64,000 bases of DNA, from contig CBIHOC010000024.1 in the NCBI GenBank assembly GCA_966211705.1, positions 9,319 to 73,318 on the forward strand, given 5' to 3'. Source of the stretch: an uncultured Chryseobacterium sp. GTDB lineage: Bacteria; Bacteroidota; Bacteroidia; Palsa-965. Below are positions 1 to 64,000 of this stretch, one piece after another. Made by a program: the position numbers and the translations under genes. The notes under the pieces were generated by a model, which was not told where the DNA came from, did not search any database, and saw nothing but the letters and a program-made list of their open reading frames with translations. The stretch's first letter is position 1. The number at the start of each line of letters is the position of its first letter.

Positions 1-2786
1 TCAACCCGCTGAGTGCAACGGCAACATCGACCAGCGTGAGCTGCAACGGCGGCTGCAACGGAACGGCAACCGTCACCGCAAGCGGCGGCACCGGGCCGTA
101 TACGTACAGCTGGGCGCCTTCGGGCGGAAACGCGGCGACCGCTTCCTCGCTTTGCGCGGGAACATATACATGCACGATCACGGATAACGTAGGCGCAACG
201 ACAACAGCTTCCGTTACGATCACGCAACCCGCCGCGCTCACTGCAAGCGCCACGCCCACGAACGTGCTTTGCAACGGCCAGTGCACCGGTTCCGCAACCG
301 CATCAGGCAGCGGCGGCACAGGCCCGTACACGTACAGCTGGGCGCCTTCGGGCGGAAACGCAGCAACCGCTTCCTCGCTTTGCGCAGGAACGTACACGGT
401 TACCGTCACCGACAACAACAGCTGCACCACCACGCAGACGGTGACGATCACGCAGCCCACCGCGCTCAGCGCAACCGCAACGCCCGCCGCCATTCTCTGC
501 AACGGCCAATGCACCGGCTCCGCAACCGCATCGGGCAGCGGCGGCACACCGGCGTATTCCTACAGCTGGGCGCCTTCGGGTGGAAACGCGGCAACCGCAT
601 CGTCCCTTTGCGCAGGGACTTACACGGTAACTGTGACGGATAACAATGGCTGTTCCACCACGCAAACTGCTGCGGTCACAGAACCTGTCACCGCGATCAC
701 TGCGGGCGCCACATCGACGCCGGCGACCTGCGGCAACACGAACGGCTCCGCGACAACGACAGCGAGCGGCGGAACGGGCGCGCTCACGTACAGCTGGGCG
801 CCATCGGGCGGCAACGCAGCAACGGCGAGCAACCTTGCCGCAGGAAATTATACCTGCACGGTGACGGATGCGAACGGCTGCACGCAAACAGCAACGGTCA
901 ACGTCGCCAACACCGGCGCGCCGAATGTTACGCTGCAGGCGCAAACGAACGTTTCCTGCGCAGGCGGATCGAACGGCGACGCGACAGTTTCTCCTTCCGG
1001 CGGAACGCCCCCTTATACGTATGCATGGTCGCCCACCGGCGGCAATGCTGCAACCGGCACGGGTCTCGGCGCGGGAACATACACGTGCACGATCACCGAC
1101 GACGCCGGCTGCACAACGACACAAACCGTAACCATTACCGAACCGGCCGCGCTCAGTGCAAACGCTACATCTACACCGACCGGATGCAGCACAAGCACGG
1201 GCTCGGCCACGGTAACGGAAAGCGGGGGAACGGGGCCGTACACATACAGCTGGGCGCCTTCGGGCGGAAGCGCATCGACGGCGAACAACCTCGCTGCAGG
1301 CACATACACCTGCACGGTCACCGATGCGAATGGCTGCACCACAACCGGTACGACGACAGTTTCATCCACCGGCGGTCCCACCGTCAGCCTGCAGTCGAGC
1401 GTCGACGTGGCTTGCTTCGGCGACACCACAGGCTCTGCAACGGTTAATGCAACGGGCAACGGCCCGTTCACGTACAGCTGGTCGCCCTCCGGCGGATCTT
1501 CTGCAACAGCAACCGCGATGCCGGCCGGAACATACACCGTTACGGTTACGGACATAAATAATTGTCCCACGCTGCAAACCGTTACGATCACCGAACCGCC
1601 GCAGCTGACCGTTTCCGCAACTTCAGTTCCTGCAATGTGCGGGAACAACAACGGCAGCGCAACCGCAACGCCCGCAGGCGGTACAGGCGCATACACGTAT
1701 GCCTGGAGCAATTCGCAGTCGACATCCACGATCAGCGGTCTTGCCGGCGGAACATACAGCGTGACGATCACGGATGCGAACGGTTGCACGACGACGACAA
1801 CAGCGGTCGTAGGAAATACCGGCGCGCCGGTTGTTACCTTGCAATCTTCTGCTGACGTTACGTGCTTCGGCGGCAGTAATGGAACGGCAACGGTGAACGC
1901 TTCTTCCGGATCGCCGCCGTACACGTACGCATGGTCGCCCACCGGCGGAAATGCAGCGACGGCAACAGGCCTTGCTGCGGGAACGTATACCGTGACCGTC
2001 ACGGGAAGCGACGGCTGCTCGCAAACGCAAACGCTGACCATTACACAACCGGCAAGCGCGCTTTCCGGTACGAGCACGGCAACGAATGAAAACTGCGGGG
2101 ACGGAAGCGGCAGCATCGCGCTCAGCGTGAGCGGCGGCACACCGGGTTACACGTATGCATGGAGCAACGGCCCGACGACTTCATCGATCAGCAACCTCAG
2201 CGCCGGAACTTATACGTGTACCGTTACCGACGCGAACGGCTGCACCCAGGTTATCACAGGAATTGTCGGCAACACGGGAAGCGCAACCGCGAATGCCGGT
2301 GTGGACGTTACCATCCTGCAGGGACAAACCACGCTGCTCACCGGCACAGGCGGCGGAACCTACGCATGGTCGCCGTCGACCGACCTGAGCTGCGCGACAT
2401 GCCCTGATCCCATCGCGTCGCCCACCGTGACGACCACGTACATTCTTACGGTGACAGATACGAACGGCTGTACCGATACAGATACGATCACCGTGTTCGT
2501 CGACATCACCTGCGGCGAGCTCTACCTGCCGAATGCATTCTCACCGAATGCGGATGGACGGAATGACGTGCTGTATGTGCGCGGAAATTGCATTAAGGTG
2601 TTGCAGTTCGACGTCTACAACCGGTGGGGCGAACGTGTTTTCTCGACCACCGATCCGGCGCTGGGGTGGGACGGAACGTGGAGGGGAGATGCCTGCGAAA
2701 CGGCGGTGTTTACCTACGTGCTGCGCGCAACGTTGCTCGATGGCACCGAGATCGACAAGCAGGGAAATATTTCACTGGTTAAATAA
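1..2786 (+). CDS. SprB-repeat cell-surface adhesin fragment with T9SS type-B (CHU_C / gliding-motility-associated) C-terminal sorting domain. 5'-partial: the reading frame is open from base 1 and the listed GTG at 36 is not the true start.
   Basis: About 11 tandem ~75-aa repeats of the form SGGTGPYTYSWAPSGGNAATASSLCAGTYTxTVTDxNGC. C-terminus LPNAFSPNADGRNDVLYVRG...YNRWGERVF...GWDG matches the CHU_C/T9SS-B domain. Frame is open upstream to the window edge and continues the repeat. Confidence 0.85.
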   Translation, partial: NPLSATATSTSVSCNGGCNGTATVTASGGTGPYTYSWAPSGGNAATASSLCAGTYTCTITDNVGATTTASVTITQPAALTASATPTNVLCNGQCTGSATASGSGGTGPYTYSWAPSGGNAATASSLCAGTYTVTVTDNNSCTTTQTVTITQPTALSATATPAAILCNGQCTGSATASGSGGTPAYSYSWAPSGGNAATASSLCAGTYTVTVTDNNGCSTTQTAAVTEPVTAITAGATSTPATCGNTNGSATTTASGGTGALTYSWAPSGGNAATASNLAAGNYTCTVTDANGCTQTATVNVANTGAPNVTLQAQTNVSCAGGSNGDATVSPSGGTPPYTYAWSPTGGNAATGTGLGAGTYTCTITDDAGCTTTQTVTITEPAALSANATSTPTGCSTSTGSATVTESGGTGPYTYSWAPSGGSASTANNLAAGTYTCTVTDANGCTTTGTTTVSSTGGPTVSLQSSVDVACFGDTTGSATVNATGNGPFTYSWSPSGGSSATATAMPAGTYTVTVTDINNCPTLQTVTITEPPQLTVSATSVPAMCGNNNGSATATPAGGTGAYTYAWSNSQSTSTISGLAGGTYSVTITDANGCTTTTTAVVGNTGAPVVTLQSSADVTCFGGSNGTATVNASSGSPPYTYAWSPTGGNAATATGLAAGTYTVTVTGSDGCSQTQTLTITQPASALSGTSTATNENCGDGSGSIALSVSGGTPGYTYAWSNGPTTSSISNLSAGTYTCTVTDANGCTQVITGIVGNTGSATANAGVDVTILQGQTTLLTGTGGGTYAWSPSTDLSCATCPDPIASPTVTTTYILTVTDTNGCTDTDTITVFVDITCGELYLPNAFSPNADGRNDVLYVRGNCIKVLQFDVYNRWGERVFSTTDPALGWDGTWRGDACETAVFTYVLRATLLDGTEIDKQGNISLVK

Positions 2787-14905: not shown

Positions 14906-15067
14906 AAACTAGTAGCTTGAAAGCAAAGGCTTACAAGTTGAGGGAACATTATGCAATGCGAAAAGTAGTCAATTTGACAATATAGGATATAGATCTTTGT
15001 CCCCTGACCCTCATTCGACCGTTTGCTTCCAGTATTCGACAACCTGCATTCAGCTTACCTTTGCACC

Positions 15068-16111
15068 ATGCTTGACAACCAATCGAAAACAGAACTTTCC
15101 CGCCTCGGCGAATTCGGACTTATCCGTCACCTTACTTCTGCCATTGAGCTGAAGAACCCGTCATCGCTGAAAGGCGTGGGCGACGACGCCGCCGTGATCG
15201 ACTACGGCGGACCGAAGGTGAGCGTCGTTTCCACCGACATGCTGGTGGAAGGCGTTCACTTCGACCTTGCTTATGTTCCCCTGCGGCACCTCGGCTATAA
15301 GGCCGCCATTGTAAATTTCTCCGACATCTACGCCATGAACGCGCAGCCGAAGCAGCTGCTCGTGTCGATCGCGATCTCCAGCAAATTCCCGCTCGACGCG
15401 GTGGAGGAATTGTATTCCGGGTTATTGCTTGCCTGTGAACGTTACGGCGTCGACCTCGTGGGCGGCGATACCACTTCCTCGCAGATGGGCATGGTGATCT
15501 CCTGCACCGCGATCGGGGAAGGAGAGAAAGAAAAGCTGGCGTACCGCAACGGCGCAAAAGAAAAAAACCTGCTCTGCGTTTCCGGCGATCTCGGCGGCGC
15601 TTACATGGGGCTGCTCCTGCTCGAGCGTGAAAAAGAAGTGTTCAAATCCGACCCGAAGATCCAGCCCGACCTGGAAGGCAACGATTACATTCTCGAGCGC
15701 CAGCTCAAACCCGAAGCCCGTCCCGATGTGATCCAGATGCTGAACGACCTGGGCATCAGACCGACTTCGATGATCGACGTGTCCGACGGGCTTGCCTCCG
15801 AGCTGCTTCACATCTGCGACCAGTCGAACGTGGGCGCGCAGCTTTACGAAGAAAAAATTCCCATCGACCCGATGACGTACAACCGCGCGCGGGAATTCAA
15901 CCTCGACCCGACCATGTGCGCGCTGAGCGGCGGTGAAGATTACGAGCTGCTGTTCACGATCGACATGAACGATTACGAAAAGCTGAAGAACAACGCCGAC
16001 ATCACGGTCATCGGCCACATCACCGCGAAAGAATCAGGCGTGAACATGGTCTCGAAATCGAACACGGTTCACCCGGTGACGGCGCAGGGATGGGATGCGT
16101 TGAGAAAATAA
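15068..16111 (+). CDS. thiL: Thiamine-monophosphate kinase ThiL
   Basis: GEFGLIRHL...GVGDDAAVID...VSTDMLVEGVHF...GYKAAIVNFSDIYAMNAQP...LVGGDTT, an AIR-synthase-related fold with ThiL motifs. Start refined to the ATG at 15068 (track ORF begins at 15023). Confidence 0.8.
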   Translation: MLDNQSKTELSRLGEFGLIRHLTSAIELKNPSSLKGVGDDAAVIDYGGPKVSVVSTDMLVEGVHFDLAYVPLRHLGYKAAIVNFSDIYAMNAQPKQLLVSIAISSKFPLDAVEELYSGLLLACERYGVDLVGGDTTSSQMGMVISCTAIGEGEKEKLAYRNGAKEKNLLCVSGDLGGAYMGLLLLEREKEVFKSDPKIQPDLEGNDYILERQLKPEARPDVIQMLNDLGIRPTSMIDVSDGLASELLHICDQSNVGAQLYEEKIPIDPMTYNRAREFNLDPTMCALSGGEDYELLFTIDMNDYEKLKNNADITVIGHITAKESGVNMVSKSNTVHPVTAQGWDALRK

Positions 16112-25483: not shown

Positions 25484-25735
25484 ATGACAATTGGCGTCCA
25501 GTCAGTAATGATTGAATTCAGGATAGTCGGTAAAGAGATTTTGCTGGACTACGAGCTTGTTACCGAAAAATGCTCCTGGAGTATTTTCGATATCGGGGGA
25601 GTGGAACTGAGCAAAGGATCGCTGGATGGCCCGCCGCCTCACCGGATCTCCGTGGCGCACCTTGCACCGAACGTTTACCAGCTTTGCGTGATCGACGGCG
25701 ACAAGCTGCTCAATTCACGTTTCCGCATCGGCTGA
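25484..25735 (+). CDS. Hypothetical small protein. Weak resemblance to a T9SS CTD tail.
   Basis: 84-aa ORF (track gives 25424..25735). The tail APNVYQLCVIDGDKLLNSRFRIG loosely resembles the GxYxxxVxDG...K end of T9SS sorting domains. Could be a gene remnant. Confidence 0.3.
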   Translation: MTIGVQSVMIEFRIVGKEILLDYELVTEKCSWSIFDIGGVELSKGSLDGPPPHRISVAHLAPNVYQLCVIDGDKLLNSRFRIG

Positions 25736-25771
25736 ACCTTTGACATTTTCTGTCAACAGCATTCCGGCACA

Positions 25772-26629
25772 TCAACCCATTTTCGTTTTGTAGCAGAAGC
25801 CTGCGAACGCGCGGAGTTTTTTCAGCGTTGTTTCCCGCGCTTCGATGAAGCCCATGTGCCCGGTGCGTTCCAGGGGCACGAAACGGCAGACCTTCGGTAA
25901 TTCCGCCTGCTCTTTCAGTGAATCGAACGGGATGACGTTGTCGCGCTTGCCGGCGATGATCTGCACGGGGTAATGCGCGAACTTCAGCACGATCTCGCGG
26001 TTGGTACGGATCTTCATGCCTTCGAGGCACGCCACGATGCCCTGCTTTTTCGTTTTGGCCGCCATGCGCCGCAGCCAGTTGATCTCTTTTTTGTAATAAC
26101 GCTGGTTGGCGAGCGCGAATAAATTGATCACGAGCTGGTTCGTGTATTTCGCGGGATCGCGCTTCACGATGCGGATCGCGCGCTCGCGGTCGAGTTTTTT
26201 CTCCGCGCTGTCGGGCAGGGCGGTGGAGTGGAAGAGGCAAAGCCCGCGCAGGTTGTCGGAATATTTTTCGGCGAATGCCAGCGCGACGTAACCGCCCATC
26301 GAGTGGCCCGCGATGATGTAGCGCCGGAGACCGAGCCCGTCCATCACGTCTTTCACCACGTCGGCCATGCGCTCCATCTTGTGCACGTAGCCCAGGCATT
26401 CCGACTTGCCGTGCCCCGGGAGATCGATGGCGATCACGCGGAATTTTTTTGCGAGGTCGTTGGCAAAACCATTCCCGAACCACACTTCCAGCGATTCGAG
26501 AAACCCATGCACGAGCACGATCGCGCGGCCCTTTCCCACATCCGCATAACGGATCTTCGCACCGCGGCAAACCATAAACTTCGTTTCCGGTACGATGGGT
26601 TTGAAGACGGGAACGGTCAGCGCCACCAT
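25772..26629 (-). CDS. Alpha/beta-fold hydrolase
   Basis: VLVHGFLES...IDLPGHGKSE...IAGHSMGGYVAL nucleophile elbow GHSMGG. 285 aa. Confidence 0.85.
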   Translation of the reverse strand: MVALTVPVFKPIVPETKFMVCRGAKIRYADVGKGRAIVLVHGFLESLEVWFGNGFANDLAKKFRVIAIDLPGHGKSECLGYVHKMERMADVVKDVMDGLGLRRYIIAGHSMGGYVALAFAEKYSDNLRGLCLFHSTALPDSAEKKLDRERAIRIVKRDPAKYTNQLVINLFALANQRYYKKEINWLRRMAAKTKKQGIVACLEGMKIRTNREIVLKFAHYPVQIIAGKRDNVIPFDSLKEQAELPKVCRFVPLERTGHMGFIEARETTLKKLRAFAGFCYKTKMG

Positions 26630-39399: not shown

Positions 39400-41037
39400 T
39401 TGGTACGATCCATTTCCGCGATGATGTCCGTACGCAAGCCCCTCGCTGTAATCGTCAGCCTTTTCCTGCTCACCGCGCTGCATGCGCTTCCGGCGCGCGT
39501 GTACGTGCTGCAGCCGCAGGAAACGGAAACCGATCTCACCTCGTATTGCATGCTGCTGAGCGATCCCGGGAACAAGCTCGGCATTGAAGAGGTGCTTGCC
39601 GGCCGGAGTTCCGCCTTGTTCACGGAGAATAAATTGCACCAGCCGTTCCTGCAGGCCCATCCGCCCGGCTTCAATGGCTGGGTAAAGCTCAGCATCTGCA
39701 ACCCGGGCCAGTCCGCGCGGTCGATCTTTCTCTCCCCGAGCCGCGACGTCGATTCCGGCATGATCTACTGGAAGGAGCGCGACGGGCTGTATTCCGGGCA
39801 ATGGGGAACGCTGGTGAAAACATCCGGCCGCACCTACCCGCGCATCGGCATGACCATCGCCCCGCGCGATACGCTGCAGCTGCTGATGCGGATCCGCGGC
39901 GACGGCTTCAGCACGTTCAACAACCGCGACATATCCGTCACCGTCAGCGACCAGCAAACCTGGCTGAAGCAGGACGAATCGGCGCTGCTCATCTTCGGGA
40001 TCTTTTACGGCGTGCTGTTCGCGCTCATCTGCTATTCGTTCGCGGTGTATTTTGTCGTGCGCCGGCCCATTTATTTTTATTTCATCGCATTTATTTTTTC
40101 GGCGCTGCTCTTTTACATCAAGGAGAATGAGATCGGCGCGGCTTACATCTGGGGCGATAGCGCGCTGGTGTGGCTGAACAAATACGGGAACAACCTGCTG
40201 TTCGGCCCGCTGGCGATCGTGACGGGTTTTACCTTCTGCCGGAAATTTCTCCACCTCCGGCACTATTACCCGAAGCTCGACCGGGTGATCGCGGTGCTTT
40301 CGTATGTCCAGCTGTTTTCTTTTCTGCGCCTGTTCATCGGCCTCCACGAGCTGATGCGCTTCGTGCAGAACGGGCTGGTGGTGGTGGGAGTCGTTCTGCT
40401 GGTGGGCGGCGCGCTGGCGATGGCGCGGCGGAAAAATCCCGACGCCCGGTTGTTCCTCCTCGTGTTCCTGTTCGCGCTGGCCGGCATTGCGATCCACGCC
40501 CTGCGCTATTCGCAGCTGTTGCCGCAGAACGTATTCACCCAGTATGCCGCGCAGCTGGGCATCGGCATCACCGCTCTCGCTTTCGCGATGGCCATCGGCG
40601 CGCAGGTGCGGCAGATCAACAAGGCCAAGCGCGCTGCGGAGAAAGATGCGCTTGAAAAATCGAAAGAGATCGAACGGCTCACCAAAGAGCAGAACATTTT
40701 GCTCGAGCAGAAAGTGGAGGAGCGCACGCGCGAATTGCAGGAGGCGCAGGACGAGCTGCTGCGCCAGGAAAAGCTGGCCTCGCTCGGCAAGCTGGCCAAC
40801 CGCATCGCCCACGAAATGCAGAACCCGCTCAACTTCGTCAATAATTTTTCCGAGCTGTCTGCCGAGCTCATCGCGGAATACATGTCCGCCACCACCGAAG
40901 AGCGCCTCCACATTCTCAACCAGCTCAAAGAGAATATGGAGAAGATCAACCACCACGGCCAGCGCGCCGACCAGATCGTGAAAAGCATGCTGCAGCATCT
41001 GAACGAGCGGAAGGAAGGGAGTTTGTTCGGGGAATGA
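39400..41037 (+). CDS. 7TM-DISM receptor (extracellular 7TMR-DISMED2 domain + 7 TM helices) with a cytoplasmic HisKA dimerisation/phospho-acceptor domain and no HATPase_c catalytic domain
   Basis: Signal peptide, about 190-aa extracellular domain, seven hydrophobic helices, coiled coil, H-box LANRIAHEMQNPL. The ORF terminates about 60 aa after the H-box, with no N/G1/G2 boxes. Confidence 0.7.
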   Translation: MVRSISAMMSVRKPLAVIVSLFLLTALHALPARVYVLQPQETETDLTSYCMLLSDPGNKLGIEEVLAGRSSALFTENKLHQPFLQAHPPGFNGWVKLSICNPGQSARSIFLSPSRDVDSGMIYWKERDGLYSGQWGTLVKTSGRTYPRIGMTIAPRDTLQLLMRIRGDGFSTFNNRDISVTVSDQQTWLKQDESALLIFGIFYGVLFALICYSFAVYFVVRRPIYFYFIAFIFSALLFYIKENEIGAAYIWGDSALVWLNKYGNNLLFGPLAIVTGFTFCRKFLHLRHYYPKLDRVIAVLSYVQLFSFLRLFIGLHELMRFVQNGLVVVGVVLLVGGALAMARRKNPDARLFLLVFLFALAGIAIHALRYSQLLPQNVFTQYAAQLGIGITALAFAMAIGAQVRQINKAKRAAEKDALEKSKEIERLTKEQNILLEQKVEERTRELQEAQDELLRQEKLASLGKLANRIAHEMQNPLNFVNNFSELSAELIAEYMSATTEERLHILNQLKENMEKINHHGQRADQIVKSMLQHLNERKEGSLFGE

Positions 41038-41232
41038 CAACTCTATTTAGAATCATTTCGAATAAGCCCCATTTTGCTGAAATTCAGTGAGCTTCCTCAT
41101 AATTCCGGAAAATTTCTTCCCCCTGTAAACTTGATACAACCCTGCACGGTGAGTACATTTGTCCCCGCCTGCCGGTTTCCGAATCCCATTTAAATCATCG
41201 CCGGCGGAGACACGTCTAATCTCGTTCGGTAT

Positions 41233-41925
41233 ATGACCAAATTCCTCACCTCCTCCATCGGCAAAAAAACGGTGATGGCCCTTTCCGGCCTGTTCCTTAT
41301 CCTTTTCCTGCTGGAGCACCTGTACACCAACGTACATCTTTTCTTCGGCGACGGCGGCGAAGAATTCAACGAAATGTCTCACTCCATGGTGCGCATGATC
41401 ATCATCCGCATCATCGAGATCGTCCTCTTCCTCGCCATCGTGGTCCACGTGGCGCAGGCCATCCTGCTCACCCGCGAGAACGCACAGGCCCGCCCGATCA
41501 AATACGCCATCAACCGCACCGACCAGACGAGCGTGTGGATCTCCCGCAACATGGGCTTCACGGGGAGCGTCATATTCTTCTTTATCGTAGTTCACCTCTG
41601 GCAGTTCTTCCTGCCTTACCGCGTCACCGGCACCGTCGGTGCGGAAGGACATGAAACGCTGGCCCAGGAAGTGGTCGAAGCGCTGGAAAACCCGCTTTAC
41701 GCCGGCATTTACCTCGTGTCGGTTATTTCCCTTGCCTTCCACCTCAGCCACGCGCTGCAGTCGGCCGCGCAAACGCTCGGGGTCAACAACAAAAAATACG
41801 CGCCCCTGTGGCACAAGCTTTCCATGGGCCTCGCATGGCTGATGGGCATCGGCTTCGGCTCTTTCCCGGTCCTGTTCTACGGCGCGAAGCTGCTGAACAA
41901 AGACCTCCTGAACTGGGCGATGTAA
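41233..41925 (+). CDS. sdhC: Succinate dehydrogenase / fumarate reductase cytochrome b subunit, b558 family
   Basis: 230 aa and five TM helices with conserved His ligands, directly upstream of sdhA and sdhB as in Bacteroidota. Confidence 0.85.
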   Translation: MTKFLTSSIGKKTVMALSGLFLILFLLEHLYTNVHLFFGDGGEEFNEMSHSMVRMIIIRIIEIVLFLAIVVHVAQAILLTRENAQARPIKYAINRTDQTSVWISRNMGFTGSVIFFFIVVHLWQFFLPYRVTGTVGAEGHETLAQEVVEALENPLYAGIYLVSVISLAFHLSHALQSAAQTLGVNNKKYAPLWHKLSMGLAWLMGIGFGSFPVLFYGAKLLNKDLLNWAM

Positions 41926-42019
41926 AAATGAAAAAGCAAAACTCAAAACTCCAAATGCCCAAAATGTCGGGCGCTACACGTTTGAGATTTGAACGTTTGA
42001 ATTTTTTGAAATTTCAACT

Positions 42020-46917: not shown

Positions 46918-46945
46918 GAGCTTTGTATTTTTTTGAGACCTGCTT

Positions 46946-47557
46946 TTGACTGTGAAAATTACTTCTTTAACCCTCTCCGTAATTCTTCACCCCATGCTGA
47001 TGGTGACGTACGCCGCCGCCATCTTCCTGTTCGTGCTCCCTTCCGATTTCCAGCCCGTTTCGCCGGGGCTGCCGTGGAAGATCCTCGGCCTGCTCTTCAT
47101 CAGCACCGTGCTCATGCCGCTTACGTTCGTATTCATGATGCTGCGTATGGGACGCATCGACACCATGCAGATGGAACGGCAAAAGGAACGCAACTGGCCC
47201 CTGCTCACCACGGCGATGATCTACGCCGGCGGTTATTACGCGATCCGCTCCAGGGCGGTGCCCGATTTTATCCAGCTCTTTCTTCTCGGCGCGGTGATCG
47301 GCATGCTGCTCGCGCTGGTCGTGAACCTGAAATGGAAGATCAGCCTGCACATGATCGGCATCGGCGGGTTGTGCGGGGGAATTACAGCCGCGCTCATGCT
47401 GGGCATCGACGGAAGCCCGTGGCTGGTCGCCGGATGTTTTCTTGCGGCAGGATTGCTCGGCACGGCGCGCCTGTACCTTCATGCGCATTCGCCCGTGCAG
47501 GTGCTCGCCGGTTTCCTTGCAGGATTTGCCGTGGAGTTTGGACTGATGATGATGTAA
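46946..47557 (+). CDS. Polytopic membrane protein, possibly PAP2-like
   Basis: About 6 TM helices. SLH and R-x5-H-x3-Q resemble PAP2 motifs C2/C3, but the third-motif Asp is replaced. Tentative. Confidence 0.4.
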   Translation: MTVKITSLTLSVILHPMLMVTYAAAIFLFVLPSDFQPVSPGLPWKILGLLFISTVLMPLTFVFMMLRMGRIDTMQMERQKERNWPLLTTAMIYAGGYYAIRSRAVPDFIQLFLLGAVIGMLLALVVNLKWKISLHMIGIGGLCGGITAALMLGIDGSPWLVAGCFLAAGLLGTARLYLHAHSPVQVLAGFLAGFAVEFGLMMM

Positions 47558-47562
47558 AGGGT

Positions 47563-47700
47563 GCGAATTACGAATCGCTGCGAATCTACGAATTACGAAT
47601 CGCTGGCGGAATGCTATGCCCTCAAAGGGTTGCGCGCAGCCATGCGCACCGGCAACCCTTTGAGGGTTTAGCATTCGTATCCGGAAAGAAATCGTAAATC
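47563..47700. repeat. Palindromic/repeat block (gcgaattacgaatcgct x2, gccctcaaagggttgc...ggcaaccctttgagggt, cgaatgctatgcc / ttagcattcg)
   Basis: Direct and inverted repeats seen in the sequence between convergent genes. Confidence 0.35.
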
Positions 47701-57352: not shown

Positions 57353-57466
57353 GCTCTATTTCCAAAAGAGATTCAAACTTCTCTGTTTATTAGCATCTGC
57401 ACCTGATCTGATCCGGTATTCGGTTTGGCCAGGATTATACTTAGTTTCCCATTCTTCATTAAGATC

Positions 57467-58726
57467 TTACAATTCACCCAGGTAATGGAATGAGCTTACC
57501 TGGTCATATTCATCATACTGCCGGAATTGTCCTTGCTTATCAATAAACCCTTTTTTGCCATTTTTAGTCACTTTAGCCATGCCACCGGAAAAAGAGGAGG
57601 CGTTTTCATACTCAAACGGAAGTACAACTTTTCCACTGTGATCGATAAATCCATACTTGCCGGCAACGTTTTTCACATGCGCAAGACTATCAGAAAACTG
57701 GTATGCATAAGCAAATTGCAAAGGGATTACTACCTTTCCTGATGTGTCGATGAATCCAAATTTACCGTCTTTTCTGACCGAACATAGTCCTTCTTTGATC
57801 CCAAACATCACTTCATATCTGGGAGGAACTATAGTGTCTCCTGATCCGGACAGTAACCCGTACTTGTGATTTGCGTACGAAAAAAAAATCGCCATGTCGA
57901 GGTCACTGTCATACAGCCATGTGCTGTCAGCGATTTCTCGGATCACCAGGCCCGCTGTATCGATCAGCATTTTTCTCGTGACATAATTTCGAACACTGTC
58001 ATCAAATACCTTACGAATTACGAAAGCCGTGCGTTTATTATCAAAAGCTCTTCCTTCATCATATATACATGGGATCACCAATTTCCCGTTCCGATTTACA
58101 AACCCTATTTTACGTGTGTGCGGATCTATTACGAGTAACCTGTTGCAATGAAATTCGAACGTAGCAACCATTTCCGGAGCGATATCCTTATCTAACATAT
58201 CAGGTGAAATAACGACTTCCCCGGATGTGTCCACGAATGCCAGGCGAAAATGTTGTGGTCCGTTCTTTTTCGAAAGACCGATAGCGGCTAAGTTTTCGTT
58301 AAAGCGACCCAGTCCCTCTACTTCATATTCATTATTAATTCTGACTGTTTTTATTTTATTATTATTTTTTGTAATAATCCAAACGTCATTTCCTAGCCTG
58401 ACCATCGCGCGGCCCTCTCCGAATCTTGCTGCTTCATCATACATGAGCGGTATCGCCAGGTTCCCCAGTGAGTCATAAAACCCCTGCTTACCATTTTCGC
58501 AAACACCATAAAAACCTTCACTCCAGCCTGAAGAACTATAGTTGACAGGGGAAAACCGACATGGTACTATCTCTTTGCCTTCGGCGTTGATATACCCGAA
58601 CTGTTCATTGGTGCCGTTCCTTTTCCTTACTTCAGCTACGGAAATCGGGCCTGTTTTCGTCTCCGTGCAAGAAAAAAAAATCGAGGAGAACGTTGTAAAA
58701 AAAAATAGTTGTCTCAGATATCTCAT
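57467..58726 (-). CDS. WG-repeat (KWG-type beta-repeat) lipoprotein
   Basis: Start refined to MRYLRQLFFFTTFSSIFFSC (lipobox-like Cys). Repeated GKxGFID/YGFIDxSGKVVIP motifs of the WG_beta_rep family. AT-richer than the surrounding genome. Confidence 0.75.
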   Translation of the reverse strand: MRYLRQLFFFTTFSSIFFSCTETKTGPISVAEVRKRNGTNEQFGYINAEGKEIVPCRFSPVNYSSSGWSEGFYGVCENGKQGFYDSLGNLAIPLMYDEAARFGEGRAMVRLGNDVWIITKNNNKIKTVRINNEYEVEGLGRFNENLAAIGLSKKNGPQHFRLAFVDTSGEVVISPDMLDKDIAPEMVATFEFHCNRLLVIDPHTRKIGFVNRNGKLVIPCIYDEGRAFDNKRTAFVIRKVFDDSVRNYVTRKMLIDTAGLVIREIADSTWLYDSDLDMAIFFSYANHKYGLLSGSGDTIVPPRYEVMFGIKEGLCSVRKDGKFGFIDTSGKVVIPLQFAYAYQFSDSLAHVKNVAGKYGFIDHSGKVVLPFEYENASSFSGGMAKVTKNGKKGFIDKQGQFRQYDEYDQVSSFHYLGEL

Positions 58727-58751
58727 GGTCTGTAAAAGTAGGACATCCTCT

Positions 58752-61700
58752 CTATTTCTCATTTTTCTCGACAACAGGCACAGGAGTCCACCAGCGACGT
58801 TTATAATACCAGGAGAACTCCGCACCGGCATTCCACCCGATCTTGTGCTTTTTGGTCCCGTCGGCAAGCTCGATATCCGTAAGCCAGAACCCCTCGACCA
58901 ACTGTATCCGAGCATAGGGCTCATCGCCGTGATAGAGCGGAGTCCCGACCGCAGTGTACACGCTGACGATCTTCACCGGTACTTTGTCATAAAATTTGCC
59001 TAACCCGCCTTTAAACGAAACATGGAAGTTCACCCACACCGCCACTTCGCTCTGCCTGTATATTTCGAGCACCTTGGGATCGTCGAACCCTCCTTCGAAA
59101 TAAACGTCGGCGCCGATCGCGGAGGGTTGTGTGACAGACAATGTTTCGTTGCTTGCGTTGACCGCGGTTTCATTGCTCCCGGCATTTTTATTTTTAGGCA
59201 ATGTGTCGATCCTGGTCGGATAGCTAACGGTCGTATTGTCTTTTTGTTCACGCTTAACCAGGTCCGGCGGCGGCGCAACCGGTTTAATGACGGAAAGCTT
59301 TTTGTAGGGTGTGTCCGTGAACCCTGCTCCATAGGGAGAAATCATTTTGCCGGAATCGGTCAGCACGGAATTATACGACCTGAGGTCGTCGACATTGACA
59401 AGCGCATAACCGCCTGTGTTAAGCGCGTAGTTATACCTGGTGTGGGTTCCGGACGTTTCCATCGATTCGTAGCTGGCGGTGACAATGTAATAATCCATCA
59501 GCAACTCCAGGGTATACGCATCGGCAGCCTGCACCAGCACATAATCGTCGGGGTCGCCGGGATAATGATCCCGGAATGGTTGCCAACTTTGCATGTAATT
59601 AATTTCTGCTTTCCTGAACATGGGTATCCTGTTCTCCATCGTTTTTTCGCCGGTTATCGTTTCCGCCTCGTCCAGTTCGATCGGTTTTGTCCTGAAGTAG
59701 CGGTTGATCGTATATACCGATTCGTCTGTGGAGAACAGCTCCTCATCGCTGTCCATCATATCGAACTGCTGCTGTTCGGCCTGCCTCGCCAGGTGATATA
59801 ACCCGTCGAGCATCTCCTGCTGCTCCTCGCTATAGAAGGAAACCCTTTTCTCATCCCTTGCGAGCCACACATTGTAGCCCCATTTCCCTTCAAGGTAGTG
59901 CAGGCGCCGGTTGCCGGATTCGTCGGTGATATAAGCGAACCACGATTTCAGGTCGAGCACTTCGGCGAACATATCATAAAATACGGCCTCCATACCTCCA
60001 TTATCATAGGTCAGATCGCCTTCGACCACTGCATGGAATCCTTCTACGGATGTGATATTTGCAAAACGGGGATCGTCAACGAGCGCGGCTTTGATCCGGT
60101 CTTCATTCGACATGTTTTCGGTACCGGCGATCTGCTCGTTATCATCATCAAGCAGCATGACCCCGGGTTCAATTCCTTTATCCTTCCACCAGCGTATTTC
60201 GCTCTGTCCTGCCAGGTCTATTTTGGATCGTTCGATATCCTCCATCGCATCCGCAATTTCCTCGTTTTCCATGTACTCACGCGTCATATCCAACAATTGC
60301 ACGATCAGGAAGAACCAGGCAGCGCCCTTTGTGCCAGCCGATGGCGTCGCGGTTCTTGCACTTTTCTCTACCATTTGTTCCAGCTCAACCTGCCTTTTCG
60401 TCACCCTGTTCATTTCCTGTACCGTCCTGCTGTACAGCTGCATTTCCCTTTCACCCGAGCTCAGCTTCGTTCTTCCCAGTTTGTTTCGCATACTTAACGT
60501 AGCCTTGGCCCATACCATCGCATATTGAAACGCCTCCTTCATGAATGTTGTGCCGACAACCATTCCCGCCTGTTGCACGACACTCATCTGGTACGCTTTT
60601 GCTTTCGCCAGTGCGCCCAGGTCTTTCCGTGCCGTCGCATCCCTGATCATTGCGGATGAAAAGGAGATCATCTGCGTGAAGGTCATCACGGACAAATTAT
60701 CGATGTATTCTTTTTCCAGCTTTTCGAACTCCGCCTTGCCCATAGCCTGCTCGACTTTGTTGGCTGCCGCTGTCACCTGTGTCATGTCCATTTCCCCTGA
60801 TCTCAAGCCTCCGGGGTTTGCTTCACCTGCTTTTATCATCTCCAGCCAGAAAGCATTGATCGATGTCTTCAGGCGTGAAATGGGATCCGGAAGACGGGAG
60901 GTGAAATCGGCCAGTGAAGCCGTATAAGTGCTCAGAAGGGTTTTCCCGCCTCCTTTTTCCTGCTTGAGCTGGGGATCAAGAATGCCTTTCAGCATGGTAA
61001 TGTTGCGATGAATCTCCTGGAGCTGGGAAAGCTTCAGTTGAGCGGCCTGCATGCGGGTGATCGTTTCCTTATCCGCGTAGAACCGGTTAAAAAGTCCGCC
61101 GAAATCGACCGTATATTTTTTGCCTCCTTCGTATTTCTTCGTTTTCGAATTTTCAGTTACGGGTTCACTTTTGATGATCTCGGCTTCCTGCAAAATGGTT
61201 ACGGTCCCGGAGGGGGACGATTCAGCGCCCGCTTTCTGCTGGGCGAACATGTTGAGGTTCCCTCCGCTCGCTTCGAAGCTCAGGCGCAGCAGCTCGATCA
61301 TGCCCTTGACGTCTCCTTTCCCTACTTTGCCTCCATGGTGCGCATGCTCCAGCACACGGAGATTCGTTCCGCCCGCTCCCATCAGCTTTATCATTACTTC
61401 GGGCGTTATCGCGTTGATGATCTTCTCCATCCCTTTTCCCGTGAGGTCAGACGTAAAGACCATGCTTGTTCCCAGGGAAAGGTCGTACAGGATGGTAATC
61501 GGGCTCGTTTCATTCACGGTCATTTTCTCCGTGTTCTTCGGGTTCAGGCGCATCTCGATCATCTTGAGCCCATTCATGACGCGCTGTGTCATGTTGACGT
61601 CGCCTCCTTCCACCCGGATTTCCAGAATATTCTCCCCGGCTACGCGCTGCACGTATGCCGTTTTCCATGCCGCAAGGCCTTTGATGTTTTCTTCGTATTT

Positions 61701-62885
61701 ATACCGGGCCACCCGTACGACCATATTTTCCATTCCCGGCAGCAGCTTGAGGCGGTCAAGTTCCGAGAAATGGTCCTTGTCGAAATGCGATATCGTAGTT
61801 TCAAAAGGTAATTGCGAACCGGAAATTTTTGCCGTTTGCTGTACCTGCTCGGTAAGATCTTTTACCCTTAAATTGTAAGGAGCTCCCGCGTCCATCAGTA
61901 ATGAACGGCCATCCTGGTTCAGGGTGACCATGATCGACCGTGCAGCGCCTCTCGGGAGAACATAAACGCTTATTGCCGCTCTCGGCGTTTTTGTTTGCAG
62001 CCGGAACGTTCTTTCCTTAATGGAGACGACATATTCATTGGCGGGCCCTGCCGATGTAATGCAGGAGTCCTCGTAGAGATCAAGTTTGTAATCGGTGCCA
62101 AAAGTATTTGTTACAAGGGTTTTCAGTTCGGGATCGCCGTCGAGCAGTTCCAGGAATTCTTTAATGACGACCGCCGGGTCGACCTTGCGCTGGATCTTTG
62201 CCATTACTCCCTTTCCCTGCTGCACCGTATGTGTCACCTCATGCGCCAGCAAACTCTTCCCCTCCGCCGTACCCGGATTATAATTCCCCCCCTTAAAATA
62301 AATATCCTGTCCATGCGTAAACGCCTTCGCATTGATCCCCTCACTCATCGAACTGGCCGTGCTTCCGGTATGAATTTTCACGCCTGAAAGATCGGTTCCT
62401 GTATGCTGCTCTAGTTCGCCCTTCGTATTGCCGTCAAGGCTTTGCCCCTGTCCCTTTGTCGCCGACAGTTGCTGATCGAACTCCGGTGTGGTTGTCAATG
62501 TCCCGTTTTCTCCTTTCATACTGATCTCCGGCCCCGCCTGCTCCATCGTCATTCGTGACATGTTCACGTCGCCGCGCGAAACCGCATCTGCCAGCTTGTC
62601 CGCCTGCATCTCCGACGAATCATGAGGCTGCGAAATTTCCAGCTTGGCCTGTACGAACATTTTTTGCTGCTCTATTGATTTTCGGAGGATTGCACGGCCA
62701 GTCTGGTCCACATGAGTTTGCGAAAACTGGTTCGCACCATCCTTCATCATCCGCGATATCTGCTCATTGCTGAGCGAAGCGATATAACGAAATACTTGCT
62801 GCCGGCCGGAATTTCCTTTCTTACGGTTAGCCTTTCCTTTGTCCTTTTCTTCTTTATGGCCCTGATCGTAAGTTCTCATATTCAA
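58752..62885 (-). CDS. Large (1377 aa) multidomain protein with an N-terminal DUF4157 domain (putative HExxH zinc metallopeptidase-like). Candidate eCIS-associated effector/toxin.
   Basis: Residues ~90-225: EMQADKLADAV...DLSGVKIHTGSTASSMSEGINAKAFTHGQDIYFKGGNYNPGTAEGKSLLAHEVTHTVQQ matches the DUF4157 consensus, including HEVTH. No signal peptide. Sits immediately downstream of an AAA+ ATPase. Confidence 0.8.
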   Translation of the reverse strand: MNMRTYDQGHKEEKDKGKANRKKGNSGRQQVFRYIASLSNEQISRMMKDGANQFSQTHVDQTGRAILRKSIEQQKMFVQAKLEISQPHDSSEMQADKLADAVSRGDVNMSRMTMEQAGPEISMKGENGTLTTTPEFDQQLSATKGQGQSLDGNTKGELEQHTGTDLSGVKIHTGSTASSMSEGINAKAFTHGQDIYFKGGNYNPGTAEGKSLLAHEVTHTVQQGKGVMAKIQRKVDPAVVIKEFLELLDGDPELKTLVTNTFGTDYKLDLYEDSCITSAGPANEYVVSIKERTFRLQTKTPRAAISVYVLPRGAARSIMVTLNQDGRSLLMDAGAPYNLRVKDLTEQVQQTAKISGSQLPFETTISHFDKDHFSELDRLKLLPGMENMVVRVARYKYEENIKGLAAWKTAYVQRVAGENILEIRVEGGDVNMTQRVMNGLKMIEMRLNPKNTEKMTVNETSPITILYDLSLGTSMVFTSDLTGKGMEKIINAITPEVMIKLMGAGGTNLRVLEHAHHGGKVGKGDVKGMIELLRLSFEASGGNLNMFAQQKAGAESSPSGTVTILQEAEIIKSEPVTENSKTKKYEGGKKYTVDFGGLFNRFYADKETITRMQAAQLKLSQLQEIHRNITMLKGILDPQLKQEKGGGKTLLSTYTASLADFTSRLPDPISRLKTSINAFWLEMIKAGEANPGGLRSGEMDMTQVTAAANKVEQAMGKAEFEKLEKEYIDNLSVMTFTQMISFSSAMIRDATARKDLGALAKAKAYQMSVVQQAGMVVGTTFMKEAFQYAMVWAKATLSMRNKLGRTKLSSGEREMQLYSRTVQEMNRVTKRQVELEQMVEKSARTATPSAGTKGAAWFFLIVQLLDMTREYMENEEIADAMEDIERSKIDLAGQSEIRWWKDKGIEPGVMLLDDDNEQIAGTENMSNEDRIKAALVDDPRFANITSVEGFHAVVEGDLTYDNGGMEAVFYDMFAEVLDLKSWFAYITDESGNRRLHYLEGKWGYNVWLARDEKRVSFYSEEQQEMLDGLYHLARQAEQQQFDMMDSDEELFSTDESVYTINRYFRTKPIELDEAETITGEKTMENRIPMFRKAEINYMQSWQPFRDHYPGDPDDYVLVQAADAYTLELLMDYYIVTASYESMETSGTHTRYNYALNTGGYALVNVDDLRSYNSVLTDSGKMISPYGAGFTDTPYKKLSVIKPVAPPPDLVKREQKDNTTVSYPTRIDTLPKNKNAGSNETAVNASNETLSVTQPSAIGADVYFEGGFDDPKVLEIYRQSEVAVWVNFHVSFKGGLGKFYDKVPVKIVSVYTAVGTPLYHGDEPYARIQLVEGFWLTDIELADGTKKHKIGWNAGAEFSWYYKRRWWTPVPVVEKNEK

Positions 62886-62905
62886 TAGTGTTAATAGTGT
62901 TATTC

Positions 62906-64000
62906 TTAAAAATTCTTCCGGTGCTCATACCCGGCGCCATAACGCCGGGCCGGATTGGTCATTACCATTTCATCGGTACATATTTCATACTTACGCCCTG
63001 TCTTTTTAAACTCATCCGCTATAGCCTGTTCCAGGATTTTGAAGGTGATTGTTTCCATATTCCGATCGAGCGCTTCAATAACGCCCTCCGAAATAATATT
63101 GTAAATCCCTCCCCCGGAAAACTGGTAATCTTTTGCTAACCGGTCAACCAAACCGTCTTCATATTTAAAAGGCTCGTTCAACGCATTTTTCCAGAGAAGA
63201 ATACGTTCAGGATATTCCGGGAAATTAAACGCCACGATTTGACGTATACGACGCTGAAAGGCTTTGTCAAAATACTGGGACAGGTTTTGTACGTTGGTTG
63301 CGAGGATCACTATGCCGTTATATTCTTCTATTTTCTGAAGGAGAAAGGACTGCTCGTTGTTCGCGTGCTTATCATGCGAATCTTTCACTTCAATACGCTT
63401 GCTAAAAATCGATTCGGCTTCATCAAAGAATAAAATACTCGGCTGCCCGCTGAAACGATCAAATACCCGCTCGAGGTTTTTCTCAGTTTCGCCGATGTAT
63501 TTCGAAACGAGTTGTGCAAAATTTACCTTATACACCGGCAGATGCAGTTCGTTACCTATAGCTTCGGCGGTATGGCTTTTTCCCGTTCCGGGATCCCCGC
63601 TAAAAATACCAATGAAGTTTTGCCGATATTTTTGACCATTAGGCAGCGACCATAGTTTTTTCATGTTTCGGGCAAAACGACGAAGCTTTTCCAGTTCAAT
63701 AATCGTCTTTTCATCAAGGACTACATCCTTCATCGTATGCGTGTGCTTGCCACGCCTTACCGGAAAATGGGAATCGCCGTCTAAACTGGGAGCATTACCG
63801 TGCAGTATCGCTGACAAGAACTGTTCGTTGAAGAGCAGCTCATGCTCGAGAAAATTTGTGTTTTCGTGTGTCGGGTGAGAAAGCAGGATATTCGAGGTAA
63901 AAAGTTTGTGGCGGCTGTTGAAAAGACAGAGATAATAGTCGATCAACTCTTCATCCTCACCGGCCAGCAAAAATATAGCTGTGCGAACAGTTGGATAAAA
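62906..64000 (-). CDS. AAA+ ATPase, 5'-partial (N-terminus lies beyond the window end). Afp15/Pvc15-like candidate.
   Basis: Walker A GDPGTGKSH, Walker B ILFFDEAE, second region of homology, sensor residues. The reading frame stays open to base 64000 and the listed start at 63970 is a TTG. Confidence 0.8.
   Translation of the reverse strand, partial: FYPTVRTAIFLLAGEDEELIDYYLCLFNSRHKLFTSNILLSHPTHENTNFLEHELLFNEQFLSAILHGNAPSLDGDSHFPVRRGKHTHTMKDVVLDEKTIIELEKLRRFARNMKKLWSLPNGQKYRQNFIGIFSGDPGTGKSHTAEAIGNELHLPVYKVNFAQLVSKYIGETEKNLERVFDRFSGQPSILFFDEAESIFSKRIEVKDSHDKHANNEQSFLLQKIEEYNGIVILATNVQNLSQYFDKAFQRRIRQIVAFNFPEYPERILLWKNALNEPFKYEDGLVDRLAKDYQFSGGGIYNIISEGVIEALDRNMETITFKILEQAIADEFKKTGRKYEICTDEMVMTNPARRYGAGYEHRKNF

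Follow-up and report, generated by a model that had tools for sequence, protein, structure and literature searches.

A probable detached loader and cargo operon of the extracellular contractile injection system type in an uncultured soil Bacteroidia bacterium

The window, by which we mean the whole stretch of 64,000 nucleotides that was analysed, ends at its right edge in three minus-strand genes encoding an AAA+ ATPase, a toxin with a DUF4157 ("eCIS_core") domain and a WG-repeat lipoprotein. All three are present where the original prediction had placed them, with the ATPase gene running off the edge. They occupy a block of low GC content (57353..64000, no strand assigned) that starts at the convergent junction with a PorP/SprF gene (ending at 57352) and continues for at least 1 kb beyond the window. 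The step in composition at about 57350 is abrupt, GC content being 0.563 over bases 1-57352 and 0.50-0.55 in the toxin gene, 0.42-0.45 in the ATPase gene and 0.39-0.46 in the WG gene, the lowest of the whole window. GC3 amounts to 0.42 in the WG gene, 0.62 in the toxin gene and 0.50 in the ATPase gene, against 0.73-0.80 in the SprB, PorP and SdhA genes. These contrasts bear out the expectation of an AT-richer block with its minimum at the WG gene. The horizontal acquisition proposed along with it fares less evenly: the low GC fits such an origin, without being proof of it, whereas no tRNA was found within the window and no integrase family was matched there. Elsewhere in the window, the minus-strand open reading frames 39283-41040 and 41053-41946 were considered as unknown genes and discarded, since they are artefacts that lie antisense to a 7TMR-DISM kinase gene and to an sdhC gene.

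The ATPase frame (62906..64000, minus strand) is open up to the window edge and holds the 3' 364 codons of a gene for 468 amino acids (PF00004 AAA, E 1.5e-23). The remaining part was read from a twin contig of 6.4 kb (L001), the sole match to exact look-ups with the toxin and the ATPase, which is identical to the window at 5356 of 5357 overlapping bases. The complete gene lies at 727-2133 of this contig and its start falls 312 nt past the edge (about 64312), so that the window holds residues 105-468, including the AAA module (residues ~236-440). The protein is built of this one module and a helical N-terminal domain of ~190 residues. It carries Walker A (GDPGTGKS at 239), pore-loop (KYIG at 271), Walker B (ILFFDE at 293) and sensor-1 (ILATN) motifs as well as arginine fingers (RR at 354-355), and these residues are invariant across 32 homologues. 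The AF2 model (pLDDT 82) has its best fold matches among FtsH, p97 and proteasomal Rpt unfoldases, and the best PDB sequence match is the D2 of CDC48 (1e-26). By its motifs and fold matches this protein is a single-ring AAA+ unfoldase of the classical clade.

It had been proposed that the ATPase belongs to extracellular contractile injection systems (eCIS) rather than with FtsH or CbbX, and the comparisons agree with this. In BLASTP the AAA module aligns with residues 446-693 of Afp15 (pADAP) at 36% identity (153 bits, E 1e-44), and an ATPase encoded directly after a CIS tape-measure gene aligns at 33% identity over 445 residues (236 bits), the N-terminal domain included. Scores against the NCBIfam models of FtsH (44 bits) and CbbX (25 bits) are far below those against eCIS ATPases. 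The alignments support an Afp15/Pvc15/Alg15-type eCIS ATPase, not FtsH or CbbX, and its role is presumed to be that of a cargo loader and unfoldase. Afp15 of Serratia entomophila pADAP shares the pore-loop block KYIGETEKNL with the window ATPase; nevertheless it has 696 amino acids and is encoded between a tape-measure gene and a gene for DUF4255, the eCIS tail terminator domain (PMC8213781), whereas the window ATPase has 468 and heads its own operon. Pvc15 of Photorhabdus, which picks payloads via an N-terminal signal and consists of tandem D1 and D2 AAA domains (PMC11495950), also differs from the one-module window ATPase. Alg15 of AlgoCIS, compared by description only, is like the window protein a single-module AAA+ ATPase with DE in Walker B.

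The toxin gene follows. The 1377-residue DUF4157 protein predicted at 20 nt after the ATPase stop stands as an open reading frame (58752..62885, minus strand, opening with TTG), but its start does not. Because homologues uniformly open with M[RK]T[YF][DE].G, the true start is the ATG at 62879, which gives 1375 amino acids (58752..62879) and a spacer of 26 nt between the ATPase stop and this ATG (62880..62905). Residues 1-149 (62433..62879) form a hydrophilic region matching no Pfam family which, judged by composition alone (70% disorder-promoting and 22% hydrophobic residues), is probably disordered, and which by analogy with known systems is presumed to be the loading signal. Its first ~58 residues (MRTYDQG...RKKG...FRYIASLSNEQISRM) are specific to cargoes accompanying the close clade of ATPases described below, and the N-terminus is 51-75% identical to those of six toxins paired with such ATPases. 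This tag motif was found in 11 of 120 DUF4157 matches, on differing C-termini, and was absent from in-operon cargoes and from the cargo of L173, which is paired with a divergent ATPase.

Residues 150-226 (62202..62432) are the zincin domain, known as DUF4157 or PVC-metallopeptidase and now as 'eCIS_core' (PF13699, 2.9e-27). It contains HEVTHTVQQ, and HExxHxxQ is the defining signature of the PVC-metallopeptidases (PMC3482391). Shortly after it lies a recombination-type breakpoint (residues ~232-248, 62136..62184) where similarity to sister toxins stops: in BLASTP against six of these, every alignment, at 51-75% identity, ends at residues 231-248 of the query and nothing aligns further on. Related DUF4157 proteins bear Ntox35, Het-C, colicin-DNase, EndoU, deaminase, lipase, amidase and other domains. 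DUF4157 marks eCIS toxins (PMC8213781, PMC11297309) and is also present in some T6SS effectors (PMC11297309). The PVC-type or eCIS toxins have a constant DUF4157 N-terminus and variable C-terminal domains swapped by recombination; long stretches between DUF4157 and the C-terminal domain are common in them, and several toxins are possible per genome (PMC3482391, PMC8213781). The window toxin resembles these polymorphic toxins in its N-terminal DUF4157 with HExxHxxQ and its exchangeable C-terminus. Unlike the published ones, it is encoded together with an ATPase of its own and apart from any structural gene detected. Its suggested place as an eCIS component or cargo is thus in keeping with its architecture, which matches eCIS cargo and supports assignment to the PVC-type polymorphic toxins with a swappable C-terminus.

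A similar cargo layout has been described for AlgoCIS of Algoriphagus machipongonensis, which like the window host belongs to the Bacteroidota. Its cargoes Cgo1 and Cgo2 have a disordered N-terminus, DUF4157 and a variable C-terminus, and Alg15 is needed for their loading into the tube lumen (bioRxiv 10.64898/2026.05.27.728243). The likeness in layout was compared by description only, and Cgo2 has 1228 amino acids as against 1375 in the window toxin. Moreover, the N-terminal signal of the window toxin is clade-specific, and the AlgoCIS cargo genes sit in the structural cluster whereas the ATPase and cargo of the window have an operon to themselves, in 65 kb that show no structural gene. A type IX secretion system (T9SS) as export route, hinted at by the SprB and PorP neighbours, was also considered and rejected, as the toxin has neither a Sec signal nor a T9SS C-terminal domain (CHU_C, Por_Secre_tail).

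Beyond the breakpoint, residues ~300-570 (61170..61982) have the alpha-beta/beta-alpha fold of the metallo-beta-lactamases (MBL) with a conserved metal-binding motif. This motif, S364-H-x-D-x-D-H370 (61770-61790), is invariant, and likewise D478 and H514-H515. In the AF2 model of the module, of moderate quality (mean pLDDT 67.5), the domain is likest the nucleases and phosphodiesterases ComEC, RNase J and RNase Z, and it is predicted to be a hydrolase. These three have H-x-H-x-D-H where the toxin has S-H-x-D-x-D-H, identity to them is only 9-14%, and the toxin domain, unlike them, sits inside a protein of 1375 residues. The remainder of this effector module of ~900 residues (59370..61055) is, by the secondary structure of the AF2 model, helical at residues ~609-900 and alpha/beta at ~905-1170, and besides the MBL domain the module gave no significant fold match. 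The module matches no Pfam or NCBIfam family and is rare, with 43 cluster representatives among 1.84 billion. HExxH stands upstream of it in all but two of the 24 representatives examined, the exceptions being shorter and with scant N-terminal sequence. Toxins sharing the module are found inside eCIS operons, in one case right after CIS_TMP (L175) and in another with Tail_P2_I and PAAR genes (L174). The tail of the toxin (residues 1186-1375, 190 amino acids, 58755..59324) comprises a low-complexity linker and a beta-rich domain. It has no Pfam match at E<=10, and phmmer matched it only with itself among the proteins and loci gathered; a word-indexed search with the C-terminal part of the toxin also returned the query as sole match. 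An internal similarity of this tail to the DUF4157 region had no Pfam support and was discarded.

The last gene of the block (57467..58726, minus strand) has its ATG 25 nt from the toxin stop and encodes 419 amino acids with six stretches of WG repeats (PF14903 WG_beta_rep, E 8.6e-60). The N-terminus, MRYLRQLFFFTTFSSIFFSC, contains a lipobox with a lipoprotein-type Cys20. The lipoprotein is possibly an immunity protein, an accessory or an unrelated passenger. In PVC-type systems a cognate immunity gene directly after the toxin gene is optional. As a cognate immunity protein the lipoprotein found no backing, there being no co-variation with toxin type, and the literature searched offered nothing relevant on an immunity role of WG-repeat proteins. 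The gene is absent beside toxins with the same C-terminal module, whose neighbours differ. A WG-repeat gene does adjoin the module in L086, but it is convergent, its product is 23-30% identical and the toxin there carries Het-C.

Relatives of the ATPase were collected from genomes and metagenomes in scans dominated by the generic eCIS-ATPase peptide KYIGETEK, which returned mainly relatives of 30-37% identity, with two close ones among the matches listed. The distant relatives were sampled as the 106 loci, among the matches listed, in which 4 kb or more upstream of the ATPase could be read. They are 30-37% identical over residues ~10-440 and have an eCIS context in 96 cases (91%). In 55 of the 106 the ATPase directly follows a tape-measure gene, a neighbour whose family was checked as PF19268 CIS_TMP (2.4e-100), and 21 show the order tape measure, DUF4157, ATPase. 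The close clade is made up of eight loci including that of the window, a small sample in which some flanks reach just 1-4 kb. ATPases within it are 55-91% identical and at most 36% identical to other ATPases; against in-operon ATPases the figure is 30-36%, about as far as the in-operon ones are from each other. A DUF4157 toxin comes immediately after the ATPase in six of the seven other clade loci, the neighbour in L093 having no DUF4157 match. Six loci (L003, L085, L086, L088, L092 and L093) lie among housekeeping genes, and L002 is the only one of the seven that adjoins eCIS genes. The clade thus differs from the distant relatives in eCIS context (Fisher p = 2e-5). In addition, the metagenome-assembled genome (MAG) GCA_025963725.1 contains two divergent ATPase-toxin pairs and a toxin lacking an ATPase that bears the tag of one of the pairs. 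DUF4157 proteins are likewise encoded on two JGI contigs, of 4.84 and 4.96 Mb, whose SdhA proteins cluster with that of the window at 90% identity.

The original prediction took the ATPase to close a structural operon at its 3' end, with sheath, tube and baseplate genes just past base 64000 on the minus strand, and the adjoining sequence does not agree with this. On the twin contig the ATPase gene is preceded by an intergenic region of 282 nt with a strong terminator at its start, and beyond it by two tandem cold-shock genes, each followed by its own terminator; the nearer of these is complete and the farther is visible as its 3' end only. The cold-shock genes lie in the 1 kb past the edge, in which no eCIS structural gene was found. 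Because this terminator, the gap and the cold-shock genes lie upstream, the three genes constitute a transcription unit of their own, and the WG gene is probably co-transcribed with those of the ATPase and the toxin. On the side of the window, no large open reading frame of bases 1-57000 had a Pfam match to sheath, tube, gp25, Baseplate_J, spike/PAAR or tape-measure families, and profiles built with jackhmmer, for the sheath, for Pvc16_N, for CIS_TMP and for four more families of eCIS neighbours, gave zero matches in the window. A contiguous eCIS locus, with the block as its ATPase and cargo end and the structural genes no more than ~25 kb past 64000, is nonetheless the alternative that survives best. 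An eCIS cluster encloses the ATPase gene in 91% of the distant relatives among the matches listed, an eCIS operon that includes two sheath genes and Pvc16_N begins 1.4 kb from the ATPase in L002, and the source contig of 91,209 nt has about 27 kb outside the window. That operon, however, is divergent and on the opposite strand and not upstream on the same one, and the flanks of the other six clade loci show no structural gene. Moreover the usual succession of tape measure and ATPase is missing: the window ATPase comes first in its unit and is flanked by the terminator with the cold-shock genes and by the toxin, not by tape-measure or terminator genes of a structural operon. We regard a contiguous locus as unlikely.

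The block is better read as an operon of three genes that stands by itself, the loader and cargo of an eCIS forming a detached module, and to this reading we give a probability of about 0.65. The system is of a known kind, in an unusual detached layout, and the block itself is an ordinary member of a well-described class, in which a DUF4157 toxin is accompanied by an AAA+ ATPase. Gene content, spacing, motifs, homology, context statistics and fold come from the analysis itself; from the experiments on PVC and AlgoCIS we infer loading, delivery, an enzymatic target and a structural cluster elsewhere in the genome. A hexamer of the ATPase would recognise the N-terminal signal of the toxin, unfold it and thread it into eCIS particles encoded elsewhere, through the lumen of their inner tube. 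After release and contraction of the particle the toxin would reach the target cell, where the predicted metal-dependent hydrolase domain would act. DUF4157 may process the cargo or serve as its chaperone.

Dependence on an eCIS particle is suggested by homology, and it can be asked if the module acts without one, either as a conflict or defence pair similar to IetAS or as an effector of another secretion route. Most of the close-clade loci and the three dispersed DUF4157 loci of the one MAG have no eCIS genes nearby, and PADLOC IetA models match the ATPase at 1.3e-30. This match covers the generic AAA module only (residues 177-438), and the NCBIfam model IteA (87.5 bits, 9.4e-25) stays far under its cut-off of 510 bits. 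IetAS has the serine protease IetS as partner, whereas the partner in the window is not of the IetS type, and PADLOC gave zero matches for the toxin and the WG lipoprotein, so membership of a known defence system was rejected. Furthermore, in-operon eCIS ATPases align with the window ATPase over its N-terminal domain, the same DUF4157 domain and C-terminal module occur within eCIS operons, and the missing Sec and T9SS signals argue against another route. Action without a particle therefore seems improbable. More improbable still is a decaying remnant with no present function, left when an eCIS locus was lost or rearranged, as the detached position and atypical composition could suggest, since three long reading frames are intact (1375 codons uninterrupted in the toxin), the catalytic motifs of the ATPase are all invariant and the metal-site residues of the toxin conserved, and the clade is 55-91% conserved over many metagenomes with a full-length DUF4157 toxin next to the ATPase in all the other loci but one of the seven.

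Cargo loading is a poorly understood step of eCIS (bioRxiv 10.64898/2026.05.27.728243). If the block is a detached loader-plus-cargo operon, the C-terminal module of its toxin would represent an unannotated and rare effector family (the 43 representatives mentioned above) with a predicted catalytic domain of MBL fold. The particles are under engineering for protein delivery, and a loader tied genetically to the cargo and not to the particle would help in this; the short conserved tag of the clade would, if the reading is true, provide matched pairs of ATPase and signal for tests of loading specificity. As a tentative and rather doubtful extension, cargo loading in a lineage of soil Bacteroidia may be modular and dispersed, with clade ATPase-toxin operons that are scattered among housekeeping genes, carry tags of ~58 residues and constitute several channels per genome, and in its radical version with no particle. 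If loaders are tied to their cargo and not to the particle, scans for toxins limited to the neighbourhoods of structural operons would overlook part of the arsenal of these bacteria.

Three genes lie together on the minus strand at the right edge of the window and, as the original prediction described, they encode an AAA+ ATPase (62906..64000, open to the edge; PF00004 AAA, 1.5e-23), a DUF4157 protein, here called the toxin, and a WG-repeat lipoprotein. The toxin had been read as an ORF of 1377 aa (58752-62885, TTG start) beginning 20 nt past the ATPase stop, which is correct for that ORF; however, every toxin homologue starts with M[RK]T[YF][DE].G which places the true start at the ATG at 62879, so that the protein has 1375 aa and the spacer 26 nt. 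Its PF13699 domain (formerly DUF4157, now named eCIS_core in Pfam, eCIS being the extracellular contractile injection system) covers aa 150-226 (2.9e-27) and includes the motif HEVTHTVQQ. The lipoprotein gene (58726-57467, 419 aa) follows 25 nt after the toxin, and its product has a lipoprotein-type N-terminus with Cys20 and six WG_beta_rep stretches (8.6e-60). The block is also AT-richer than the rest of the window, as had been noticed: GC is 0.39-0.46 in the WG gene, 0.50-0.55 in the toxin gene and 0.42-0.45 in the ATPase gene against 0.563 in bases 1-57352, with a sharp step at ~57350. The same three genes have GC3 values of 0.42, 0.62 and 0.50, respectively, while the SprB, PorP and SdhA genes in the neighbourhood have 0.73-0.80.

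The ATPase belongs to a family with neither a curated model nor a solved structure and was therefore judged by genomic context and direct comparison; its best PDB sequence match was CDC48 D2 (1e-26) and every NCBIfam match fell far under its cut-off. Two collection scans provided at least 160 loci with ATPases aligning over residues ~10-440 at 30-37% identity, those listed spanning Bacteroidota, Proteobacteria, Planctomycetota, Cyanobacteria and other phyla. After their neighbour genes had been clustered, the commonest upstream neighbour was identified by Pfam as the CIS tape-measure protein (PF19268, 2.4e-100). Among the matches listed, 106 loci had at least 4 kb of upstream sequence: the ATPase directly followed the tape-measure gene in 55, the order tape measure, DUF4157, ATPase was found in 21, other structural genes were in the flank in 20 (8 of these with a tape-measure gene further upstream) and no structural gene was in the flank in 10. 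The ATPase shares 33% identity over 445 aa with one in-operon ATPase (BLASTP, 3e-77), and its AAA module is 36% identical (1e-44) to Afp15 of pADAP, the block KYIGETEKNL being common to both; the Afp15 gene sits between the tape-measure gene and a gene annotated DUF4255. The ATPase keeps Walker A and B, the pore loop KYIG, sensor-1 and the arginine pair intact, with no variation in these across 32 homologues, and the matches of the AF2 model (pLDDT 82) are substrate-threading unfoldases. Context and the Afp15 comparison agree on an ATPase of eCIS type, and no clustering with FtsH or CbbX was found. In Afp/PVC the ATPase comes after the tape-measure gene, whereas in several eCIS clusters of Bacteroidota (L012, L054, L061 and L068, from Marivirga, Filimonas, Bacteroidales and Belliella) it is placed at the sheath/Pvc16_N end, co-directional or divergent.

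Sheath, tube, baseplate and spike genes had been expected just past base 64000. A near-identical ENA contig (L001, 6395 nt), with 5356 identities in its 5357-base overlap with the window and 1038 nt of further sequence, has terminators and cold-shock genes in this first kb instead; the sequence covered is the 64-kb window and these 1038 nt, out of a source contig of 91,209 nt. In L001 the complete ATPase has 468 aa, starting 312 nt past the window edge, and the 282-nt intergenic region upstream of it opens with a strong stem-loop terminator, GCCCCCCGATTACTCGGGGGGCTTTTTTT. Next upstream is a 63-aa cold-shock gene (L001 253-444; PF00313, 2e-18) and farther upstream, in tandem and also on the window minus strand, the 3' end of a second one (L001 1-87), each with its own terminator, a strong GC-rich stem-loop with a T-run. 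With a GC3 of 0.42 the cold-shock genes fall as low as the toxin module, and the stretch of atypical composition thus continues beyond the ATPase. The ATPase's own upstream region, the terminators and the cold-shock genes indicate that ATPase and toxin, probably together with the lipoprotein, are a transcription unit of their own.

The nearest relatives of the ATPase (464-490 aa, Bacteroidia metagenomes) form with it a clade of eight loci, with 55-91% identity inside and at most 36% to in-operon ATPases and Afp15. In L002 (76% identity) an eCIS operon with genes for a 1075-aa protein and Pvc16_N and two sheath genes starts 1.4 kb from the ATPase-DUF4157 pair, in divergent orientation. The pair is flanked by ion-channel or glycosyltransferase genes and cytochrome-oxidase genes in L003 and L092 (74%), and by radical-SAM and response-regulator genes in L085 (84%); the neighbours are CBM9, OmpA and purine-biosynthesis genes in L086 (75%) and peroxiredoxin, tRNA-synthetase and methyltransferase genes in L088 (72%), and structural genes are absent from the flanks of L093 (57%). 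Structural eCIS genes are near the ATPase in 1 of the 7 other clade loci against 96/106 of the distant relatives among the matches listed (Fisher p = 2e-5; 8e-4 with long-flank loci only). An eCIS locus continuous with the block past the edge is contradicted for the first kb there, and for the remaining 26 kb of the source contig these contexts make it unlikely.

Six clade-paired toxins are 51-75% identical to the window toxin over aa 1-232..248, with no alignment beyond, and relatives by N-terminus carry Ntox35, Het-C, colicin-DNase, EndoU, deaminase, lipase, amidase, AHH, PT-HINT and other domains. The toxin exactly matches the architecture of PVC-type polymorphic toxins (Zhang et al. 2012, PMC3482391) and the pattern of eCIS-associated toxins (Geller et al. 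2021, PMC8213781; Danov et al. 2024, PMC11297309). The stretch aa 1-149 is hydrophilic, 70% of its residues being disorder-promoting, and its first ~58 residues, a clade-specific tag, recur in 11 DUF4157 proteins with differing C-termini; the tag is absent from the L173 cargo, the partner of a divergent ATPase, and from in-operon cargoes. In AlgoCIS, loading depends both on a disordered sequence at the N-terminus and on Alg15, an AAA+ protein, DUF4157 being dispensable (bioRxiv 10.64898/2026.05.27.728243), and Pvc15 picks payloads by their signal peptides (PMC11495950). The pairing of the tag with the clade ATPase parallels both.

Three dispersed DUF4157 loci are found in MAG GCA_025963725.1, with no structural genes within 10 kb of them. 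L003 has a clade ATPase and an Ntox35-domain toxin, and L173 an ATPase only 32% identical to that of L003 and a DUF4157 toxin. Downstream of these two L173 genes lies an orphan 133-aa Tox-REase-2 cassette with a 120-aa ORF (14329-15110). Polymorphic-toxin loci typically have such spare toxin-and-immunity cassettes; this one stands in a toxin locus of eCIS type that has no structural genes nearby. The DUF4157 toxin of L172 (10001-12343) has a PG_binding domain and shares its N-terminal tag with the L003 toxin. The called protein (780 aa) has 42 extra N-terminal residues before the tag, MRTYDHG, at residue 43, so its annotated start is probably wrong. Having no adjacent ATPase, this toxin may rely on that of L003.

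An exhaustive phmmer search with toxin aa 241-1375 matched only 43 of 1.84 billion cluster representatives, the common part being aa ~280-1180. HExxH was present upstream of this region in all but two of 24 examined, the exceptions being shorter with little N-terminal sequence. Two of the matched proteins sit within bona fide eCIS operons, one immediately downstream of CIS_TMP and upstream of an AAA gene (L175), the other alongside Tail_P2_I and PAAR genes (L174). The effector module is unannotated and includes a predicted metallo-beta-lactamase-fold domain; its activity would most likely be that of a metal-dependent phosphodiesterase or nuclease. No informative match was obtained for the rest of the toxin, which consists of a helical region, an alpha/beta domain and a 190-aa tail unique to it. 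The lipoprotein is tied to the operon by spacing, strand and composition and is a candidate immunity protein. This role is unproven, since in L086 a WG-repeat gene also adjoins the module but is convergent, only 23-30% identical and beside a Het-C toxin, and since neighbours differ around toxins with the same C-terminal module.

Bases 1-57000 encode Suf Fe-S assembly, two-component regulators, succinate dehydrogenase, sigma-54 and T9SS substrates, with no match to contractile-tail families. Local profiles of sheath, Pvc16_N, tape measure and four other eCIS neighbour families had no match in the window, which also has no tRNA genes. Two plus-strand SprB-repeat and PorP/SprF gene pairs (3-2786/2804-3838 and 48087-56417/56426-57352) are present, the second adjoining the low-GC module convergently; their SprB proteins are giant, CHU_C-tailed T9SS surface proteins, one having 2776 aa and 29 SprB repeats. 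Neither Pfam nor PHROG gave a match for three consecutive plus-strand genes (33462-36299, 36347-38767 and 38824-39312; 945, 806 and 162 aa), which have normal GC (0.57) and bear no likeness to any locally profiled eCIS neighbour family. The long, Arg-rich minus-strand ORFs 39283-41040 and 41053-41946, without family match, were rejected as antisense artefacts of a 7TMR-DISM histidine kinase (39400-41037) and sdhC (41233-41925) on the plus strand; the Arg-rich, match-less ORFs 25710-26570 (minus) and 46933-47697 (plus) are probably likewise artefacts.

The AAA module (aa 177-438 of the ATPase, whose gene is L001 727-2133) also matches PADLOC IetA (1.3e-30) and phrog_3757 (9.6e-48), a phage family of unknown function, and these scores suggest that eCIS loader ATPases and some defence or phage ATPases are one subgroup of classical AAA+ proteins. 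The IetA match would suit a conflict system independent of any particle, but the partner is not IetS, and the ATPase N-domain and the toxin both link the module to eCIS, which makes such a system quite improbable. A decaying remnant is scarcely credible given the intact ORFs and conserved catalytic residues. The original reading as the cargo/ATPase end of an eCIS locus stands for the eCIS-type ATPase and the DUF4157 cargo, and fails for structural genes directly past the edge. The cited eCIS and PVC-toxin literature holds no description of such an ATPase-toxin organisation. In the block a loader and its cargo probably make up one module of a known system, eCIS with PVC-type polymorphic toxins; what appears to be new is the genetic link of a separate clade of ATPases to tagged toxins and not to the structural operon.
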